Sequence record: MF158040
From: Shigella phage Sf13
Length of the DNA stretch: 64,000 bases
Reading direction: 5' to 3' (one strand)
Made by a program: the position numbers and the translations under genes. Position 1 is the stretch's first letter; the number at the start of each line of letters is the position of its first letter. Of the stretch, positions 9,021-23,774 are shown in pieces. The notes under the pieces are model-generated. The model was not told where the DNA came from, did no database searches, and worked only from the letters and a program-made list of their open reading frames with translations.

Positions 9021-9293
9021 TTAGACTAAATACAATTTTTTACCACTAACAATAATGTAACTTACACCGCTATTACTGTAAACATCTTGATAAATTCTGC
9101 GTAACTTTCCAAGGTATCGAACTTTCCAAGATGTAGGAATTTTCTTTCCATATCCTGTGGCGGTTTTTTGTAGACCTGCTACCTGCCAATCTAATAGGTG
9201 CTGTTCTGCTCTTAACTCTTCAAAGTTTAATACACCGTCTACATAGTGTTTTAAAGTTACGTTCAAAGTTCGACCGTCATTAGTAGTATACAT
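9021..9293 (-). CDS. hypothetical protein
   Basis: 90 aa ORF; ATG start after cassette. Confidence 0.45.
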   Translation of the reverse strand: MYTTNDGRTLNVTLKHYVDGVLNFEELRAEQHLLDWQVAGLQKTATGYGKKIPTSWKVRYLGKLRRIYQDVYSNSGVSYIIVSGKKLYLV

Positions 9294-9351
9294 TTTAGAT
9301 TCTCCAGTTTAGGATTGTTGGGACTTCTATCTTGCCCCGTTGATGAATACT
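9294..9351 (-). promoter_or_regulatory. cassette type B
   Basis: GGGAC...GCCCC hairpin, GTTGATGAATACTTTA module, RBS. Confidence 0.45.
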
Positions 9352-9699
9352 TTACTTGTTTTGATTCTGCATTGCAAGCTCTTTTTTATTAATTTCTTGC
9401 GCTATCACAATATAATAATCTTTCAGGTTTATATCTTGAATTGACTCTAGAAGTATGTCATAATCACTGATTAATTTAAAATCACCGTCTAGAATGTTAT
9501 CAATCCGGTATGTCTCTGCTTTAAATCGAAAGCTCATCTCTAAACGTTTCAATTGTTCTAAGTTCAAACGCTCTAAAAAGCCCCGTACAAGGTTTATTTT
9601 TAAATCCCTTGTAAGTGCCTTATTAGCTATACTGTGCGCTTGTAAGGCTTTATAGAGCGCCACAATAGAGATAAAAATTGCAACGTATGTGATTAACAT
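9352..9699 (-). CDS. hypothetical membrane-anchored protein
   Basis: 115 aa ORF with N-terminal hydrophobic segment; ATG overlaps stop of 9693..9989; C-terminus ...LAMQNQNK shared with the 46 aa ORF at 5901..6041. Confidence 0.45.
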   Translation of the reverse strand: MLITYVAIFISIVALYKALQAHSIANKALTRDLKINLVRGFLERLNLEQLKRLEMSFRFKAETYRIDNILDGDFKLISDYDILLESIQDINLKDYYIVIAQEINKKELAMQNQNK

Positions 9700-9989
9700 T
9701 TGTTTTTACCTTTGTGGAATAGTTTACCAGTGTGACTAATTTCATATGAATCAACCATATCTCTAGTGGTCTTAATCGATGACTTATTAGTGTTATCATA
9801 GATATCAACCTGAAGCAATGGTTTTTTGTATTCTTTACAAAAGTTCCATACACAAATTATTACTTCCTTTTTGTTAATCTTTCCATGATACCACTCTACG
9901 GCTTCAGATGTACGGCGCATGGATTCAATGAATTGGATATTACTTAATAGCTGGCTTAATTTAGTTCTAACGTTTGCGGCAATAAACAT
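9693..9989 (-). CDS. hypothetical protein
   Basis: 98 aa ORF; ATG start after cassette. Confidence 0.45.
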   Translation of the reverse strand: MFIAANVRTKLSQLLSNIQFIESMRRTSEAVEWYHGKINKKEVIICVWNFCKEYKKPLLQVDIYDNTNKSSIKTTRDMVDSYEISHTGKLFHKGKNKC

Positions 9990-10073
9990 TTTAGATTCTC
10001 CAGTTTAGGATTGTTTGTAAAGCTCTTTATCTGGGGCTATCTTATCAACTTGATAACCCCATGTAAAGCACTT
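9990..10073 (-). promoter_or_regulatory. cassette type A
   Basis: TTTACA-N17-TAAGAT, GGGG/CCCC, RBS. Confidence 0.5.
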
Positions 10074-10586
10074 TTAGATATTAAAGATATTCATAACAGA
10101 ATCTTTCAAGGCTTCTAAACGTTCCATTACTTCAGATTCTCCATCGGAGTTCGACACTTCCTCTTCTAATCGTGAATCTAAATCTTCACCGTCAAGATAG
10201 CACCAATCGAAGCCATAAGCAAGAGAAAAGCTATTTAATACTGTATTACCTTCTTTATCTTCTACCTTTGCAAATAGCACGTAGCTGTTAGCCTCTAAAT
10301 CTCTTTGTAATTCATCTTGTAAGCTCTTGTAAGCCTCTATAGATGGATTTTCGCGGCCTTGTTTAGCATAATCACTCATCAATTGTGAAAGGCTGTAATG
10401 CTGTGGAATTGCATATTTGTACCCGTTACGCTCTGGATTTTTAAGTTTGATTGTAACCCCGCCTTTGTGCTCATCGGTAAACTTCCAATTTTCCACACAA
10501 TGGGATGCTTCACAAATATTAACAGCTTCATAGATGATAGTGAATTTTTCTTTTTGAACTTCAAAGGTAGCTTCAACGTATGACAT
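10074..10586 (-). CDS. hypothetical protein (acidic C-terminal half)
   Basis: 170 aa ORF; ATG start after cassette. Confidence 0.5.
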   Translation of the reverse strand: MSYVEATFEVQKEKFTIIYEAVNICEASHCVENWKFTDEHKGGVTIKLKNPERNGYKYAIPQHYSLSQLMSDYAKQGRENPSIEAYKSLQDELQRDLEANSYVLFAKVEDKEGNTVLNSFSLAYGFDWCYLDGEDLDSRLEEEVSNSDGESEVMERLEALKDSVMNIFNI

Positions 10587-10678
10587 ATTAAGATTCTCCA
10601 GTTTAGGACTATTGGTTAGTAAAGCTCTTTATCTGGGGCTTATACTAGCAACTTATAAACCCCATGTAAAGCACTTTA
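10587..10678 (-). promoter_or_regulatory. cassette type A
   Basis: TTTACA-N17-TAGTAT, GGGG/CCCC, RBS. Confidence 0.5.
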
Positions 10679-10936
10679 TCAGATTAAATTGTCAGTTAAT
10701 GATAAGTGCATTTTATAACCTTTCTTCGTGTAGACGTTAGTTCTACCGATTGCTTTTACACCTTTGAAAAGGTCATAGGAACTACGTTTTAAAGTAATTT
10801 CCTTATCACATTTCACGCCCCATCTTACAGCAGATTCTTTTCCGTTGTCAACCACTTTACCATTTAATTTTTTAGCAGTTGCGCGAGCGTCATCACGAGA
10901 TTTTGCAGATACAATGATGTTTTTGATAGTAGCCAT
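10679..10936 (-). CDS. hypothetical basic protein
   Basis: 85 aa ORF; ATG start after cassette. Confidence 0.45.
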   Translation of the reverse strand: MATIKNIIVSAKSRDDARATAKKLNGKVVDNGKESAVRWGVKCDKEITLKRSSYDLFKGVKAIGRTNVYTKKGYKMHLSLTDNLI

Positions 10937-11027
10937 TTTTGATACTCCAGTTTAGGTTATTGTTTGGTAAAGCTCTTTATCTGGGGCTTATCTTATCTAA
11001 CTATAAACCCCATGTAAAGGACTTTAT
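10937..11027 (-). promoter_or_regulatory. cassette type A
   Basis: Same module; RBS variant CTGGAGTATCAAAA. Confidence 0.45.
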
Positions 11028-11408
11028 TTAGTTAATTTTGAAAACTGTAACGTAGCCATCACTACCAATAGTTTGAGATACTCCAGCTTTCTCTATATCA
11101 TACCCCATTTTATCAAGATGGTACATTGCATCTTCATACCCATATTTACCGCCTTGATAGCGTCTTTTTTCGCATCGTATCACAGTTTTACCACGTCCTG
11201 CAATAGCATTTATGATAGCTTTTTCACCGGATAATGTACCGTCAAGCATAGTAGCTTTGTAGTGGTTAATACGGTTACCATTAACATCATACTTAAAATT
11301 GTAAGCGTGAACAACAATTATTTTTCCTTTGAAGTTTTCTTTCATAGTTTCCTCTAAGATACTACGAAAGTTTTCTTTGTTGATAAATTTAGGCGCACGA
11401 TATTTCAT
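11028..11408 (-). CDS. hypothetical protein
   Basis: 126 aa ORF; ATG start after cassette. Confidence 0.5.
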   Translation of the reverse strand: MKYRAPKFINKENFRSILEETMKENFKGKIIVVHAYNFKYDVNGNRINHYKATMLDGTLSGEKAIINAIAGRGKTVIRCEKRRYQGGKYGYEDAMYHLDKMGYDIEKAGVSQTIGSDGYVTVFKIN

Positions 11409-11492
11409 TTTAGATTCTCCAGTTTAGGATTGTTGGTAAAGCTCTTTATCTGGGGCTTAAGATACTAGATTTTAAACCCCATGTAAAGCACT
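11409..11492 (-). promoter_or_regulatory. cassette type A
   Basis: TTTACA-N17-TATCTT, GGGG/CCCC, RBS. Confidence 0.5.
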
Positions 11493-11872: not shown

Positions 11873-11940
11873 TTTAGATTCTCCAGTTTAGGATTGTTGG
11901 GATGTTTCCCGTTGATGCAAATACTATAAGACTGGATTTA
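11873..11940 (-). promoter_or_regulatory. cassette type B (first of array)
   Basis: GGGA-TGTT-TCCC hairpin plus CTGGAGAATCTAAA RBS; a possible promoter TTGACT-N17-TAGTAT lies just upstream (about 11922-11955). Confidence 0.4.
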
Positions 11941-12124
11941 TGAAGTCAACAAAATTTTTAAAAATATTTTCGATGCTTCGTGAATAGAACGCACGTATGC
12001 GGATACACTAAAACAGGAATTTAGTCAAGAATTATTTTTGAGTTCTCTACAAATTTTTCTCTTGACTTTTGGGAGGAAGGGGATTAAGAGGGGATGGTGG
12101 GGCTGGTTTCCTACAGCTACCTAC

Positions 12125-12320
12125 CTGCACAATTTGAAAATGAATTTTCCCTTTGGAGTCCAACTGCATCTGCACAGATTGAAAATGAAAAAGCTCTTTG
12201 GAGTCTAAACCTGCACAAATTTGAAATGAATTTTCCCTTTGGAGTTCAGCTAAAGAAATCTGTCCAGAGTTCTATGCAACTATACCTGCACAAATTTAAA
12301 ATGAAAAAGCCCTCCTTACC
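12125..12320. repeat. four direct repeats of about 36-40 bp
   Basis: CTGCACA(A/G)ATT(T)GAAAATGAA-(TTTTCC|AAAAGC)-CTTTGGAGT starting near 12125, 12170, 12211 and 12286; the last merges into the terminator hairpin. Confidence 0.55.
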
Positions 12321-12352
12321 TGAGATTTTTAAACTCAAACTTTGGAGGGCTT
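12304..12352 (-). terminator. putative terminator (long loop)
   Basis: AGCCCTCC ... GGAGGGCT inverted repeat with a T-run after it on the minus strand, downstream of the macrodomain gene stop. Confidence 0.35.
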
Positions 12353-12376
12353 GTCTATGTCTAGCTAGGTGACTTA

Positions 12377-13171
12377 TTAGTTACGTGCTTCAACATAGCT
12401 TACGTTTTCATGTGTGATATAATCTTCTGCAAACTCTTCTGTAGTAGCATTGATATATACACTTGCATCATCGCCAAACGTTACCGCTCTGTGGTGGTGG
12501 CCTTGTAACGGGTGGGTAACTTGAGCGTTACTTCGATTGTACTTATCAACCGGAGGGTAACTGGTGTGTACCTTGCCATTACGCTTCACCTTGAGGGTAA
12601 CTTTATCCTTGCCTACCACAGCAACACCATCAAAGTATTGAGGCTCACTGAAGTTCTCCCAACCAGTAACAGGACTAGTCAACTGACTGTACATCTTATC
12701 TTCATAGACATACATATATACGTCAACATCTTTCATGGTCTGATTAATAATGGACAGCACAGCCATACTATCAAGACCACCAATCCCTGCACCAATCATA
12801 GGGAGTCCAACCTTCTTAAGCTGGTTTACTTTACAGTAGTTGTTAAGACGCTGTAAAGCTGCTTCTAAGGCATTGTATCGTGCATTTTTTCCAGTGATAA
12901 CCTGAGTATAAAGGTTAGCAATTCGACCCTGCTTCAAACGTGCTACAGAGATGTTACCAAGCATTAGATTCTTAGGGTTATGGTTTTCACCACCTACTGT
13001 AGCATAAACTTCAGCGTCAGTTTCATAAGCTTTTGGGTAGCGTTTAGCAATTGTTGCTGCGATACCTGCACCCATCAAGTTCATGCAGTTACAACCGTGA
13101 CCAATGATATCAAACTTCTTACCATCAAAGTCTTTAAAGATATCACCTTTAATAATTTTTACGATACCCAT
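12377..13171 (-). CDS. macrodomain protein (TARG1/DarG-like ADP-ribosyl hydrolase fold) with C-terminal extension
   Basis: KGDIF...DIIGHGCNCMNLMGAGIAATIAKRYP and LPMIGAGIGGLD resemble the TARG1-type macrodomain (GDLF...HCISEDCRMGAGIA...PRIGCGLD); about 110 aa unrecognised C-terminal region with a GHHH motif. ORF track start is 13228; ATG at 13171 (MGIVKIIKGD...) avoids a 56 nt overlap with the upstream gene. Start uncertain. Confidence 0.55.
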   Translation of the reverse strand: MGIVKIIKGDIFKDFDGKKFDIIGHGCNCMNLMGAGIAATIAKRYPKAYETDAEVYATVGGENHNPKNLMLGNISVARLKQGRIANLYTQVITGKNARYNALEAALQRLNNYCKVNQLKKVGLPMIGAGIGGLDSMAVLSIINQTMKDVDVYMYVYEDKMYSQLTSPVTGWENFSEPQYFDGVAVVGKDKVTLKVKRNGKVHTSYPPVDKYNRSNAQVTHPLQGHHHRAVTFGDDASVYINATTEEFAEDYITHENVSYVEARN

Positions 13172-13172
13172 A

Positions 13173-13373
13173 TTAGTAATGCTCCCAACGTTCGTTATCT
13201 TCAGATGGTTTAACTCGGTTACCTTCATGGTCTACCCATAAAGCACCGCAACCTTCACAGATTACTGGCATTGCTGAACCAGCTTCAAACTCTGCCTTTG
13301 TAAAGAGACCTTTTAAGTCTCCTGTATCTTTTCCAAACATCTCAACAGAACACTTAGTGCAGAAATCAGCCAT
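13173..13373 (-). CDS. zinc-ribbon protein
   Basis: 66 aa ORF with CTKC ... CEGC cysteine pairs; ATG start. Confidence 0.45.
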   Translation of the reverse strand: MADFCTKCSVEMFGKDTGDLKGLFTKAEFEAGSAMPVICEGCGALWVDHEGNRVKPSEDNERWEHY

Positions 13374-13602
13374 TTGATATTACCTCTTGGAAGTATGTAT
13401 CACCTTCATAAGAGTAATTACACTTAAACTCTTCTAAGCTTAATCTTGTAAGCAGAGGATTCAGGTAGTGTTTAAAATCCCCTATCTTGAAGTTGTAGTG
13501 AATCAAGGGGTTCATGAATGGTATTACCTCATCCCGTCCAACAAATATAGCCCCTACTAACACTTGACGTGTAACTTTACTTCTTACCAGAATTGCTTTC
13601 AT
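13366..13602 (-). CDS. hypothetical protein
   Basis: 78 aa ORF; ATG start; short overlaps with both neighbours. Confidence 0.45.
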   Translation of the reverse strand: MKAILVRSKVTRQVLVGAIFVGRDEVIPFMNPLIHYNFKIGDFKHYLNPLLTRLSLEEFKCNYSYEGDTYFQEVISNG

Positions 13603-13903
13603 ACATCACCTTTTCAGTTAGCTCAAACAGGTCAACATGTTCGATGCTTTCAATATGGATACCAACTTTTGCATAGCGTTCTTTAACATTCTCTGCATTA
13701 AGCCATATCAGACACCAATGATTCTCTATGGATTCTTCAAGCTTGTCAACACAATCTTTAAAAGATTTCATATCTCCACGAGTACCAATGAATGCAACAA
13801 CCCCATAGAGAAACTCTTTACCACTGTGACAGACTTGTGCTGTACCAATTTCCTTTTCACCGTCTGAGAAGACGGCTACATAATTCTTACCATCTAGTTG
13901 CAT
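13577..13903 (-). CDS. hypothetical protein
   Basis: ORF track first codon appears to be GTG; the adjacent ATG at 13903 is used. Confidence 0.45.
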   Translation of the reverse strand: MQLDGKNYVAVFSDGEKEIGTAQVCHSGKEFLYGVVAFIGTRGDMKSFKDCVDKLEESIENHWCLIWLNAENVKERYAKVGIHIESIEHVDLFELTEKVMYESNSGKK

Positions 13904-15217: not shown

Positions 15218-15913
15218 TCAGTTTTTAACAAGCATTGTTTTGATGTGTGGTAAGATTCTTTCAACCTTTGCCACGTTCTTCACTGTATCTTCTATAAAGC
15301 ATACTACATCATAGTAGGGTAGAATGCAAGACTGAAGCATACGAACTTTCAAACTTTCTGCACTAATCTCATTGTCACCAAATCCACGCATAAACAGTAG
15401 GAAATCACTGTCTACATTCTCATTCAGGAAAAGATGTGTGACAACTCTTTGTGATTCACCACGAGCAGTTAGGAATCCTATATCAGCATTTCTTGATATA
15501 CCACACAGGATGTTAAAAACATATGTTGGTTTAGCTCTGCGAGAGTCTACCAAGTTAGTATATTGTGAGTAAGAACCATCATCTAACAGAGTTGCATTAA
15601 GTTTCTTGTCAAAGCTTGTAAGAACACCATCAATGTCTGCTAAGACCATTTTACGTTTTTCTTCCAAGTTCTTTGCAACCAAGATAAGGCTGTTACGACC
15701 AACATATACAGTTTTACCTGTTAGCAAATCCTGACAAGGAATCTGTGTCTTTGTTGAGTGGAAGTCTTCAAAGCTACACACAACATTTCTTGCTGTATCT
15801 GCAAAGTCAGCTTTAGCAATATCTGACCAACTTGCAGAACTGATATCTAAATCAAGTGGTTTAATATCATAAGCATGACACAGAACCATATCAAATTGTT
15901 TTGATTCGCTCAT
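15218..15913 (-). CDS. HAD-superfamily phosphatase-like protein
   Basis: HAD motif I-like LADIDGVLT; about 95 aa N-terminal extension with no P-loop; overlaps upstream gene by 23 nt. Confidence 0.45.
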   Translation of the reverse strand: MSESKQFDMVLCHAYDIKPLDLDISSASWSDIAKADFADTARNVVCSFEDFHSTKTQIPCQDLLTGKTVYVGRNSLILVAKNLEEKRKMVLADIDGVLTSFDKKLNATLLDDGSYSQYTNLVDSRRAKPTYVFNILCGISRNADIGFLTARGESQRVVTHLFLNENVDSDFLLFMRGFGDNEISAESLKVRMLQSCILPYYDVVCFIEDTVKNVAKVERILPHIKTMLVKN

Positions 15914-20726: not shown

Positions 20727-22544
20727 TTAAAGTTGCTTGTCAATAGTATTTCGAACATCACGCAGGTTAATGTAACCATAAGGTTGCGAGTTGCTAAATA
20801 CCAGTTTCAAAGCACTATGACAATTGTCAATTGCACCTTCAAACTCTGCAAAGCCAAAACCATCTACAGCTACCAGCTTGTCACCATCCCACATAGGGAC
20901 AACTCCACCAAAAGCAGACTTCTTAAGACCGCTGTCAGTTTTAGGGTCTTTAGCCAGCATAATTTCTTGACCATCCATCTGTGCAAGAGTTGCTTTAACA
21001 GCAAATGCAAAGGTGTCACGAGTCAGGTACTGATAGGTGTATGAGCCTACACCAAACACTACGTTAGAACTTGCAAAACCTTTATCAGCAAGACGTGACA
21101 GAATCTCATTAGCCCTTTCCAGAGTGATAGAATCACCGTAGATTAGTCCAATGTGCTCATCCAGTACTTTGTACCCTTTGGAGTTAATAGTGCCACCAAA
21201 GATGTTATACAGCGTGTGGATAGCTCCGTCAATTTCTGCTGTCAGCATACGCTTCACAGTAAACTGTCCAGTTTTCTGAGCGGTAATCAGGTTGATTGTA
21301 TCAGCAGATTCAAAATCTTCTTTATCAACAACCATCTCATAACCTTCAGAGATTAGCCAAGCAGAGAACCCAAAGCCAATATCAGACATTTCACAATTCA
21401 AGATTGTGTCATGCAGATGTGTATTGTTCGGTGCAAGCTCTTTCATGTGCTTATAGAACATTGACTTAGCAGTTTCCCATTCAATGGCTTTGTAACCTGT
21501 GACAATGTGAACAGGGTCTCCAGAGTCTGGACGGATTACCAACTTACCATCACGATTCAGGATTACATTACGTAGCTCTGGCAGAATCTGTGTAACAGTA
21601 CGCCAGAAGTTGTAAGTATCTGATACGGCACTTGCAATACCAGTTGGGTAAACTTCTGTCAGAAGGCGATGGAAAGTTTCTACCTCACCACGCCAACGCA
21701 TTGCATCAAGTAAGTTGTCAGAATGCGATAGATGCCAATCACTTACCTCTTTGTTAAGACTGTTCCATGAGATGTTTGCACACATCACAGAGTGCTCAGT
21801 AGCTGGGACAGAGTTACCAATCTCACCTACATTCATAAACTGACCATATGCACGTTTAGCTGTATATACAGCAGGGAAGCTGTCAGTACCTTTAAAACTT
21901 GTCAGGTGACCTACTGCGTTAAACGCATCATCTGTGAAGCCAGACATACCACGCATTGCAAAGTCATGACACTGCCAAGGTAAATGGAAGTCGTTGTCAC
22001 AGGTCTTGTCAGCCCATTGCTTACAAATACGTTTGTAGTGCAGTGCAATTGTTGCAATCGTACAAGCTTTCCAGATTTCAGCAGAGAAAGCATCTTCAAG
22101 GTAACCAGCTACCCAATGGAATCCCTCTACAGTGTTTTTGAATACAATCATCGGGACACGCATAGGGACAATTGTACCTTCCTCTACAGAGTAGACTTCA
22201 ACAGGTAGGTAGCCCAAGTCATGAAGTTCTTCCCAATGTTGACGACCAATAGCATCTGCACCGAGAACACCATTCATGATTTCCAAGATTTCGTCAATGG
22301 CTTCTTTCTTATCACGTTCAAAGAACGTTGCATTCCAGTGGTCTACCAGATAGTCTTTTACAAAACGCTGAATACCAAAGGCTACAACACCATCAATCTC
22401 TAACGGAGAGTTAAACCATTTGTCTCCACGAGGTGTTAAGTTCAGCATAAGATACTGTGTAGCATCTGGATACTGGTAGAAATGGCCAGATTTGTAGGCA
22501 TCTGCATTAAGTGCTGCTGGTACTGCATAAAGTGATTTAGTCAT
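20727..22544 (-). CDS. nadV: nicotinamide phosphoribosyltransferase-family protein (NAMPT/NadV-like)
   Basis: 605 aa; NAMPT-like motifs AYKSGHFYQYP, RPDSGDP, GLIYGDSIT; longer than typical (about 470-500 aa) NAMPT. Confidence 0.7.
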   Translation of the reverse strand: MTKSLYAVPAALNADAYKSGHFYQYPDATQYLMLNLTPRGDKWFNSPLEIDGVVAFGIQRFVKDYLVDHWNATFFERDKKEAIDEILEIMNGVLGADAIGRQHWEELHDLGYLPVEVYSVEEGTIVPMRVPMIVFKNTVEGFHWVAGYLEDAFSAEIWKACTIATIALHYKRICKQWADKTCDNDFHLPWQCHDFAMRGMSGFTDDAFNAVGHLTSFKGTDSFPAVYTAKRAYGQFMNVGEIGNSVPATEHSVMCANISWNSLNKEVSDWHLSHSDNLLDAMRWRGEVETFHRLLTEVYPTGIASAVSDTYNFWRTVTQILPELRNVILNRDGKLVIRPDSGDPVHIVTGYKAIEWETAKSMFYKHMKELAPNNTHLHDTILNCEMSDIGFGFSAWLISEGYEMVVDKEDFESADTINLITAQKTGQFTVKRMLTAEIDGAIHTLYNIFGGTINSKGYKVLDEHIGLIYGDSITLERANEILSRLADKGFASSNVVFGVGSYTYQYLTRDTFAFAVKATLAQMDGQEIMLAKDPKTDSGLKKSAFGGVVPMWDGDKLVAVDGFGFAEFEGAIDNCHSALKLVFSNSQPYGYINLRDVRNTIDKQL

Positions 22545-22588: not shown

Positions 22589-23470
22589 TTATTCAATATT
22601 TGCTACTGTCACTTGTGAGAAGTGGGAAAGACCACGGTCTTTTTCATCCCCTAGTGAGTCTGTAGTGTAGATATGGTCGATGCCATTGTCAAGAAGATTT
22701 TCAACACCTTTAGAGAAAATCCCATGAGTAACATAAAGCTCTACACGTTCTGCTCCAGCTTCACGAAGATACTTTGCAGCCTCGATAAAGGTTCGACCAC
22801 CATCACAGATATCATCCAGAATCATAACAGTCTTACCTGTTAAGTCTACATCATCAAGGATTCGCATACCAGTGATTTCACCAGTTTTCAGGTTTCGTAC
22901 CTTTGCCATTGTGATATAAGGTTTCTCAACCTCTTTAGCAGCCTCTTCAGTCTTCTTAGCTGCACCTGCATCTGGAGCCACTAAGTAATCAATGCGTGGG
23001 TCACTTGCAAAGTGGACTGCTGCCTCTTTTTGAGGGATGTTGTAGAAGCACTTAAACAAGTTCTCTGCTACATTACTGTGAGTATCCAGAGCACATACTG
23101 CATCAAACCCCATAGCATTTACAAGATTTGCAAAGACTTTAAGTGCTGCTGAATCGCCTTTAAACATGTGACGGTCATAGCGAGCATTTGGTAAGAATCC
23201 AAAAAGAACAGTTTTCATGGTTGCTTTCTGAGGAATCAAACGGTCAATAGCCTCTTTAGCCATAGCCAATGCAAAGAGTGTGTCTTTGTCATAACCTTGT
23301 ACAGTGAATATTACGTTTTCAATCTTACCAGCAGCATGTTCAGCAAAGTCTACTAAGTCTTCTGAGAAGTTACCACCAATCTCCCCAGAAGGGAACTGGA
23401 TAATGTTGAAGGTCTCTTGATGAGAACCTTTGGAATTTGAATTAAGTAGAACTCGAATAGTAGTTTTCAT
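22589..23470 (-). CDS. ribose-phosphate pyrophosphokinase-family protein (PRS-like)
   Basis: PRPP-binding motif MILDDICDGGRTF, typical PRS size; ORF track starts at a TTG (23488), in-frame ATG at 23470 used. Confidence 0.65.
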   Translation of the reverse strand: MKTTIRVLLNSNSKGSHQETFNIIQFPSGEIGGNFSEDLVDFAEHAAGKIENVIFTVQGYDKDTLFALAMAKEAIDRLIPQKATMKTVLFGFLPNARYDRHMFKGDSAALKVFANLVNAMGFDAVCALDTHSNVAENLFKCFYNIPQKEAAVHFASDPRIDYLVAPDAGAAKKTEEAAKEVEKPYITMAKVRNLKTGEITGMRILDDVDLTGKTVMILDDICDGGRTFIEAAKYLREAGAERVELYVTHGIFSKGVENLLDNGIDHIYTTDSLGDEKDRGLSHFSQVTVANIE

Positions 23471-23480
23471 AATATCTCTC

Positions 23481-23774
23481 TCAGTCAAAAGTTACAAATG
23501 TTACAGCCATAGCTGATTTACATTTCTTTGGGTCTACAATGTGGTAGATAACTGAACAGTTTCCTGTTCCGTCTGGTACTGGTTTTGTCCAAGTACGTTC
23601 AATATTTGGCTCTCCAAACTCTTTATAGAATCCGTTGGAGTAGTGGTCTATCATCTCAATAGCAAGTGCATCTGGGACGTGACCACGTATCATATACATC
23701 TCACTACCATTTCCAGCTTCGCTAATAAGCTCTTTGATATCCCATTGTTCTCTAGCCATGATAAGTTGCCTCAT
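23481..23774 (-). CDS. hypothetical protein
   Basis: ORF track begins with TTG; first in-frame ATG at 23774 (alternative 23759). Start uncertain. Confidence 0.35.
   Translation of the reverse strand: MRQLIMAREQWDIKELISEAGNGSEMYMIRGHVPDALAIEMIDHYSNGFYKEFGEPNIERTWTKPVPDGTGNCSVIYHIVDPKKCKSAMAVTFVTFD

Follow-up and report, generated by a model that had tools for sequence, protein, structure and literature searches.

The subject of this report is a minus-strand gene of Shigella phage Sf13 (sequence record MF158040), the product of which joins a macrodomain of the phage Tk.4 (AdfM)/Adpp family to an orphan C-terminal domain. The window, that is, the whole stretch of 64,000 nucleotides that was analysed, belongs to a Mooglevirus (Ounavirinae, Felix-O1-like), and its DNA at positions 12000-13700 is 98% identical to that of Shigella phages Sf15 and KPS64 and 92% identical to that of Citrobacter phage Michonne. 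The function class of the protein and its annotation as a macro domain protein or phosphatase are already known; the C-terminal domain, the placement of the Ounavirinae proteins and the possible dual role are new. We describe here the fold, family placement, active-site conservation and synteny of the protein, together with the selection acting on both of its domains, and weigh what it may do.

The Gene and Its Product

The longest open reading frame at the locus covers 12377-13228 on the minus strand (283 amino acids, aa; open reading frame list). Its true start is the ATG at 13171-13169 and not 13228, because this ATG is preceded at 10 nt by a ribosome-binding site, GGGAG, all homologues begin MGIVK, and Michonne gp097 has identical boundaries; the product is then 264 aa long and itself begins MGIVK. 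Michonne gp097 is annotated 'phosphatase, contains macro domain', and the GenBank relatives of the Sf13 gene already bear the label "phosphatase / macro domain protein". The gene and its parts are as follows.

12377..13171, minus strand: macrodomain and C-terminal-domain gene, 264 aa, stop codon at 12377-12379 (open reading frame list, PHROG 335, AlphaFold2)
12680..13171, minus strand: macrodomain, residues 1-164, with key residues H25, N28 and Q90 and the loop P124-x-I-G-A-G-I-G-G (Pfam PF01661, Foldseek)
12380..12679, minus strand: C-terminal domain (residues 165-264), largely beta strand and a single helix, with P177 and G182 invariant and a non-conserved GHHH at 224-227
13182..13186, minus strand: ribosome-binding site GGGAG, 10 nt upstream of the ATG at 13171 (read from the sequence; a site is annotated at the equivalent place in Michonne)

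An earlier, sequence-only reading of the locus had singled out this open reading frame and five motifs in it, all of which are present; in the 264-aa numbering they are GDIF (9-12), HGCNC (25-29), MGAGIA (33-38), PMIGAGIGGLD (124-134) and GHHH (224-227).

Fold and Class of the Macrodomain

Residues 1-164 can be assigned with confidence to the macrodomains of the TARG1/DarG/Poa1p (ALC1-like) class and not to MacroD. The Pfam Macro family PF01661 scores 33.9 bits (E 3.5e-8), above its gathering threshold of 22, and PHROG 335, named 'phosphatase', matches at E 4.6e-106. The AlphaFold2 model of the full-length protein, built on a 28-sequence alignment, has a predicted local distance difference test score (pLDDT) of 91.5 and a predicted TM-score (pTM) of 0.89. 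Foldseek comparison with the PDB places TARG1 at the top, with target-normalised TM-scores (TMt) of 0.85-0.87 (4J5S: E 1.7e-10, TMt 0.85), followed by DarG of Thermus (5M3E) and Mycobacterium at 0.78-0.83 and yeast Poa1p (6LFR) at 0.77. Sequence searches of the PDB agree with this class, Poa1p being the top single-sequence match. The TARG1/DarG-type assignment made by the sequence-only reading, in preference to MacroD, is therefore borne out by the PDB searches and the Foldseek results, and the fold comparison with TARG1 and DarG that it had proposed as a check puts the protein inside the macrodomain superfamily (TMt 0.77-0.87). The ratio of nonsynonymous to synonymous substitution rates (dN/dS) of the macrodomain is 0.10-0.29.

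Within the class, the match to DarG itself is partial. The NCBIfam DarG equivalog NF048014 gives 54.8 bits against a 250-bit cutoff and is matched only over model positions 2-153 of 338, which is its macro part; the PADLOC DarG model gives the Sf13 protein 54.6 bits versus 132.9 bits for PhiKZ gp104. Membership of PHROG 335 was considered as a discriminator and dropped, as this group pools Adpp, Tk.4-like proteins and the Lys-type AdfM of PhiKZ.

Active-Site Residues

The sequence-only reading had called for a check that equivalents of the catalytic Lys and Asp are conserved, and this check fails. In a hidden Markov model (HMM) alignment, Lys84 of the TARG1 Lys84/Asp125 dyad aligns with Gln90 (motif NLYTQ) and Asp125 with Gly131. 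Gln90 likewise occupies the position of the catalytic Lys80 of DarG, the K80A variant of which is inactive. Conservation was assessed in 81 aligned sequences, the query plus the macro proteins encoded at 80 related IMG/VR loci (27-95% identity). At position 90, 79 of these have Gln, two have Glu and none has Lys; Asn28 is invariant (81/81), and His25 is present in 79, a count that is partly guaranteed, as the His belonged to the search pattern. By alignment, His25 corresponds to His24 of Adpp and to His23 of Poa1p. The His-x-Cys-Asn motif and a Gln at the TARG1/DarG catalytic-Lys position characterise the phage Tk.4 (AdfM)/Adpp group.

This exchange of Lys for Gln was first held to be evidence against a reversal of DarT action, and that view was rejected: the change does not imply inactivity, because SCO6735 and T4 Tk.4 also have Gln at this position and are reported to be active against DarT. 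In SCO6735 of Streptomyces, Gln85 is stabilised by Asn27, and the enzyme is efficient in removing thymidine-linked ADP-ribose from DNA and relieves the toxicity of DarT; its Q85A variant is inactive (PMC9411070). A profile of the phage Gln-type family searched against the PDB finds BT1257 (6.5e-23) and SCO6735 (2.2e-21) as its best matches.

In the Ounavirinae and T4-like proteins, a loop of 8 residues separates the Gln from the conserved Tyr that follows it. Loop length was tried as a marker to separate Tk.4-like from Adpp-like proteins; it is suggestive and not phylogenetically clean, in that short and long forms intermix in the tree.

Relatives of Demonstrated Function

Phage macrodomains have recently been tied to two defences, DarTG2 through AdfM (2025-26) and aRES through Adpp (2026). 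The fetched sequence of T4 Tk.4 is 40% identical to the Sf13 protein over 136 aa (72 bits, E 2e-20). Without tk.4, T4 becomes sensitive to DarTG2, as established by transposon screening together with a clean knockout, and the protein was named AdfM, for anti-DarT factor macrodomain (HIDEN-SEQ preprint, bioRxiv 10.1101/2025.11.20.689424).

The second relative concerns NARP1, a system whose enzymes are Adps and Namat. According to Osterman et al. (bioRxiv 10.64898/2026.01.28.702374), the RES-domain defence aRES, found in E. coli, Klebsiella and Enterobacter, splits NAD+ into nicotinamide and ADP-ribose-1''-phosphate, which NARP1 cannot use, and some phages place a Poa1p-like macrodomain, Adpp, inside the NARP1 operon. 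Purified Adpp of Vibrio phage Gary turns ADP-ribose-1''-phosphate into ADP-ribose, its H24A mutation (Table S4 of that work) abolishes counter-defence, and Adpp lets NARP1 beat aRES by supplying ADP-ribose (bioRxiv 10.64898/2026.01.28.702374). Gary Adpp (KNV71_gp137) is 31% identical to the Sf13 protein (BLASTP, 64.7 bits), and its H24 aligns with H25.

An operon of the Vibrio phage Gary kind (NARP1-AP) is also present in an 81-kb viral contig (L078), in which Adps, a 154-aa macrodomain (31% identical, with a long loop) and Namat are consecutive at 9269-11425.

In a neighbour-joining tree, Tk.4, the Adpp proteins and the Ounavirinae clade group together as a phage cluster with 58% bootstrap support; DarG, PhiKZ AdfM and TARG1, which are of the Lys type, fall outside it, as do SCO6735/BT1257. 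The Ounavirinae clade itself has 95% bootstrap. Branching inside the phage cluster has a bootstrap of only 13-28%, and the sequences do not by themselves tell whether the function of Tk.4 or that of Adpp was inherited.

The C-Terminal Domain

A separate model of residues 165-264 (pLDDT 80) shows a small, mostly beta unit that has a single helix, and the pTM of 0.89 for the full-length model suggests that this unit is rigidly packed on the macrodomain. Its length and the pattern W-x-N-[FY]-S-x-P177-x-x-F-D-G182 are kept among relatives of about 250-264 aa, and among the IMG/VR relatives the domain is found only in Ounavirinae-like contigs. The domain has no relatives in Pfam or NCBIfam, a PDB profile search gave nothing significant (best E 0.012, a BamB blade), and BFVD holds only its own orthologue. 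An HMM of the domain run against 1.84 billion protein representatives returned only macro-fusion proteins or their fragments and weak multi-repeat matches. The weak matches to PQQ/BamB beta-propellers and to a retroelement polyprotein were judged to be chance beta-hairpin similarity. The domain does not resemble the toxin-binding domain of DarG; no DarT-binding domain is recognised here, and no DarT gene is adjacent to the macrodomain gene in the Sf13 open reading frame list or the Michonne annotation.

The GHHH to which the sequence-only reading had drawn attention in this extension is not conserved among homologues, which read GHCH, GHSC, DHCL, GSMQ or SNHR instead, and a metal-binding or catalytic motif at this place was rejected.

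Purifying selection acts on the C-terminal domain, yet its evolution is faster than that of the macrodomain: its dN/dS is 0.10-0.55 versus 0.10-0.29, and its dN at intermediate divergence is 3-4 times that of the macrodomain. In two Felixounavirus-like IMG/VR contigs (L032 and L033), the macrodomain gene (10001-10732) is only 43-44% identical to the Sf13 copy, whereas its neighbours (zinc ribbon, Namat and rIIB) are 74-79% identical; this therefore indicates allele replacement, or hypervariability, at this one locus. Fast evolution and allele replacement are compatible with a C-terminal domain that contacts a variable macromolecule and permit no further conclusion. Candidate functions would be the targeting of a substrate or partner, or oligomerisation.

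NARP1 and the Genomic Context

NARP1 was discovered in the Felixounavirus Bas63, and both of its enzymes are encoded in the window, as follows.

20727..22544, minus strand: Namat (nicotinamide ADP-ribose-transferase), second enzyme of NARP1, 605 aa, 7.5 kb upstream of the macrodomain gene (SpbetaL1 Namat structures)
22589..23488, minus strand: Adps (phosphoribosyl-pyrophosphate-synthetase-like ADP-ribose pyrophosphokinase), first enzyme of NARP1, 299 aa (Pfam Pribosyltran and Pribosyl_synth)

The Namat protein matches the crystal structures of SpbetaL1 Namat (9W5W/9W5X) at E 3e-125, compared with about 1e-40 for ordinary Nampt, and the Adps protein is 76-83% identical to Felixounavirus copies and 100% identical to that of Shigella phage Sf15. 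The link that the sequence-only reading had drawn between the macrodomain and a nearby PRS-like/NAMPT-like module is thus real, in that these genes are NARP1 and that the related Adpp supplies ADP-ribose to NARP1. At 605 aa, the Sf13 Namat-like protein is longer than the crystallised SpbetaL1 Namat (491-496 aa), with insertions at about 258-286 and 352-439; a version of 595 aa occurs in a diverged Ounavirinae-like contig (L003), and the insertions may be a feature of the lineage.

The macrodomain gene starts at 13171, 7.5 kb downstream of Namat and on the same strand. Between the two lie rIIA, rIIB, a lysozyme-like gene, an HAD-type 'polynucleotide kinase', spanins and annotated terminators. 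Of the Mooglevirus and Felixounavirus loci whose upstream flank is long enough, nearly all keep the order Adps-Namat...rIIA-rIIB...zinc ribbon-macro; more distant Ounavirinae-like contigs have a similar gene order without a detectable zinc ribbon. In the published Adpp survey, the genes covered were those no more than two positions from NARP1, and phages of Escherichia, Salmonella, Citrobacter, Shigella and Erwinia do not appear in its list (bioRxiv 10.64898/2026.01.28.702374), and because of this scope the Ounavirinae macrodomain gene falls outside it. The Sf13 gene does not lie within two genes of Adps or Namat, the distance used to place a macrodomain gene in the NARP1 operon; NARP1 is still in the same genome.

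The intervening 'polynucleotide kinase' of the relatives corresponds in Sf13 to a 231-aa protein (15218-15913, minus strand), which matches only HAD-type phosphatase profiles (PHROG 3970) and has no Pfam match at E <= 0.01; it may be a phosphatase-only protein. In the inspected parts of the Michonne genome, no phage-encoded ADP-ribosyltransferase, looked for as a possible target of regulation by the macrodomain, is annotated.

The Immediate Neighbours

Two further features flank the macrodomain gene.

13173..13373, minus strand: 66-aa zinc-ribbon protein (CxxC...CxxC), PHROG 2210 (E 3e-38), function unknown
12297..12352, minus strand: terminator-like hairpin with a 9-bp GC-rich stem (12344-12352 with 12307-12315) and an inner stem, followed by UUUUUCAUUUU

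The zinc-ribbon frame was earlier described as overlapping the macrodomain gene; with the start at 13171 there is no overlap, as the zinc-ribbon stop codon lies 1 nt before the macrodomain start. This spacing therefore points to translational coupling of the pair, which is predicted for Mooglevirus and Felixounavirus, in all loci of which the zinc ribbon stands directly upstream. Kolesnikvirus-like loci lack it. In contig L003 (86 kb), an HNH/AP2 homing-endonuclease-like gene (9694-10023) occupies the zinc-ribbon position and overlaps the macrodomain start. Zinc-ribbon homologues of 37-44% identity occur in unrelated phages with no macrodomain gene nearby. An obligate partnership was rejected in view of these homologues and of the HNH replacement; the zinc ribbon is a separate, widespread small phage gene and an independent neighbour. 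Its homologues in L112-L117, unrelated viral contigs of 28-214 kb, start MADFCTKC... and have a second knuckle ...CEGCG, and some copies of this type bear C-terminal extensions of up to about 100 aa.

The hairpin begins 25 nt past the macrodomain stop codon (RNA fold -21.7 kcal/mol, z = -2.3), and the macrodomain gene therefore appears to be the final gene of its transcription unit. The intergenic stretch between it and the next minus-strand gene (11873-12376, about 500 bp) holds repeats at 12123-12326, namely four direct copies of a 43-nt unit (ACCTGCACAAWTTGAAAATGAA...TTTGGAGT) with 63-100% identity and a spacing of 41-75 nt, which may be a promoter or regulatory array. In Michonne, a small and probably spurious plus-strand coding sequence (gp098) is annotated in this repeat-bearing gap, and Salmonella phage Mushroom has a gap of similar size after its macrodomain gene.

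Proposed Function and Alternatives

We tentatively regard the protein as an anti-defence hydrolase of ADP-ribose-1''-X conjugates, for which reversal of DarT2 action would be the most likely role, the substrates and the phenotype being inferred. The macrodomain would bind the ADP-ribose moiety, hydrolyse the group at C1'' of the distal ribose and release free ADP-ribose. Like T4 Tk.4, it would strip the ADP-ribose that the host toxin DarT2 puts on thymidines of phage single-stranded DNA, and removal of this mark would restore replication. A plausible second activity would be that of Adpp, in which ADP-ribose-1''-phosphate from RES-type NAD+ phosphorylases (aRES) is dephosphorylated; given the shared active site, promiscuity between the two demonstrated functions is plausible. 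Either way, the product would be ADP-ribose, the substrate of the phage's own NARP1, which rebuilds NAD+. Reversal of DarT2 is preferred because T4 Tk.4 is the closer match, the loop is short and the gene lies outside the NARP1 operon. The suggestion of the sequence-only reading that the gene is an eraser of defence-installed ADP-ribose gains support from Tk.4, which is 40% identical and which T4 needs to withstand DarTG2; its more particular term, DarG-type antitoxin mimic, was too specific, because the DarG model is missed widely (54.8 versus 250 bits) and the C-terminal domain is unlike a toxin-binding domain.

Several points weigh against this proposal. The action of T4 Tk.4 on DNA is itself inferred from the knockout phenotype (bioRxiv 10.1101/2025.11.20.689424), identity to both characterised relatives is only 30-40%, with a tree that does not tell which function was inherited, and the C-terminal domain, which no characterised relative possesses, may shift the specificity. 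As regards the link to NARP1, the gene belongs to a different transcription unit and not to the NARP1 operon, from which 7.5 kb of DNA with terminators and more than 15 genes separates it, and the macrodomains adjacent to NARP1 all have a longer loop after the Gln (10-16 residues versus 8); the adjacent cases are those of Table S1 of the Adpp paper, L078, L080 and also L071/L073, in which a weak Namat-like match (27% identity) lies just upstream of the macrodomain. A search for literature on Felixounavirus or Ounavirinae macrodomains, biochemical or genetic, found none.

The same evidence can be read as pointing chiefly to the role of Adpp, that is, an ADP-ribose-1''-phosphate phosphatase that completes a 'split' NARP1-AP, with de-ADP-ribosylation of DNA minor or absent. 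The identity to the validated Gary Adpp with its essential His kept, Poa1p, a known ADP-ribose-1''-phosphate phosphatase, as the top single-sequence PDB match, and a family member between Adps and Namat in L078 are all consistent with such a role, as is the occurrence of aRES in E. coli, Klebsiella and Enterobacter. In addition, the Sf13 genome encodes NARP1, the archetype phages for which are the Ounavirinae (Bas63), and the published survey, given its scope, would have missed a gene of the Sf13 type. However, the gene is not operonic with NARP1, and its short post-Gln loop is that of Tk.4, unlike the long one of every NARP1-adjacent macrodomain examined. Its co-occurrence with NARP1 across the Ounavirinae counts as a single event in the phylogeny, since the subfamily has both among its core genes, and similar short-loop Gln-type macrodomains are widespread in T4-like phages, with no Adps or Namat in the fetched 10-kb flanks. 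Overall, we regard a principal role of this kind as the main rival to the reversal of DarT2, though a rather doubtful one.

The two roles might also be united in a hub enzyme, one active site of which would both strip DarT2 marks and dephosphorylate ADP-ribose-1''-phosphate into NARP1, while the C-terminal domain would add a protein-binding anti-defence function or docking to a substrate or partner. This is unlikely as a whole; if true, a single Ounavirinae gene would counter two or more unrelated defence systems.

It is distinctly improbable that the protein erases some other ADP-ribose conjugate, such as mono-ADP-ribosylated protein or RNA (for example, from host ADP-ribosyltransferase toxins), O-acetyl-ADP-ribose or an immune signal (His-ADP-ribose or a cyclic ADP-ribose, cADPR, isomer). 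The class is promiscuous, since SCO6735 and TARG1 also act on proteins (PMC9411070), depositors named the TARG1/OARD1 chains in the PDB O-acetyl-ADP-ribose deacetylase 1, and, in the view of Iyer et al., the chief targets of phage macrodomains are soluble ADP-ribose derivatives; the fast C-terminal domain and the L032/L033 allele replacement suggest a variable macromolecular partner. Yet no member of the phage Gln-type cluster has been shown to act in this way, a lysate screen of 72 phages, E. coli phages included, found 2'cADPR cleavage only by a mycobacteriophage RyR-domain protein, and the inspected parts of the Michonne genome have no annotated ADP-ribosyltransferase.

Finally, a true mimic of DarG, in which the macrodomain reverses the mark and the C-terminal domain binds and blocks DarT directly, is very improbable despite the parallel two-domain layout, the matches of the PADLOC and NCBIfam DarG models to the macro part and the C-terminal dN of about 3-4 times that of the macrodomain at intermediate divergence, because those models match only over their first ~150 positions, the NCBIfam score is far below its cutoff, the C-terminal domain is near neutral in charge by residue count, unlike an acidic DNA mimic, and no DarT gene is adjacent.

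Significance

Felix-O1-like phages, in which NARP1 was discovered, carry a member of this macrodomain family outside the NARP1 operon, and the published figure of 15% of NARP1 phages with a macrodomain partner may be too low because only adjacent genes were surveyed. The two demonstrated functions fall into a single phage clade of poor internal resolution, the members of which share an active site, and this now makes substrate promiscuity a direct experimental question. The conserved orphan domain of the Ounavirinae is, in addition, a promising candidate module for a new specificity or for the binding of a partner. Phage therapy and biocontrol directed at Salmonella, E. coli and Shigella make use of Ounavirinae, so that it is of practical value to know which host defences these phages neutralise.

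Comparison with Known Systems

The Sf13 protein exhibits similarities to several characterised macrodomains, together with clear differences from each. TARG1 is the best fold match to its macrodomain, and Poa1p, a close sequence and structural neighbour, has in common with it the HxCNC motif, including the His. Where the Sf13 protein has Gln90, however, Poa1p has Ser and TARG1 has Lys, D125 of TARG1 corresponds to Gly131, and both are eukaryotic housekeeping enzymes. DarG and PhiKZ gp104 (PMC5179494; PMC13309987) are of the same macro class and fold, and their Asn (N22 and N23, respectively) corresponds to N28. Their catalytic Lys (K80 and K78) is Gln in the Sf13 protein, both lack the His, and DarG has a toxin-binding domain of its own that is not present here.

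SCO6735 and BT1257 (PDB 5E3B and 2FG1; PMC9411070) are the best PDB matches to the phage profile and have the same constellation of His-x-x-Asn and Gln. Unlike the Sf13 protein, they are bacterial, stand-alone and without the C-terminal domain, with 21-24% identity, and their 'mobile loop', which carries DNA-binding lysines, is five residues longer; the loop found here has 8 residues. Adpp belongs to the same phage Gln-type cluster, keeps the essential His and shares its genome with NARP1, as the Sf13 gene does. Its gene lies between or beside Adps and Namat, whereas the Sf13 gene is 7.5 kb away in another transcription unit; moreover, Adpp has 10-16 residues after the Gln rather than 8 and lacks the C-terminal domain.

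T4 Tk.4 (AdfM) differs in being a stand-alone protein of 155 aa without the C-terminal domain, encoded in the tk-vs region of a T-even genome, and the anti-DarTG2 phenotype has been shown for Tk.4. The two proteins, both annotated 'phosphatase' in GenBank, share IAHGCNC, NLYTQ and P-x-I-G-A-G-I-G (PRIGAGIG in Tk.4), the Gln at the position of the DarG Lys and a post-Gln loop of 8 residues.

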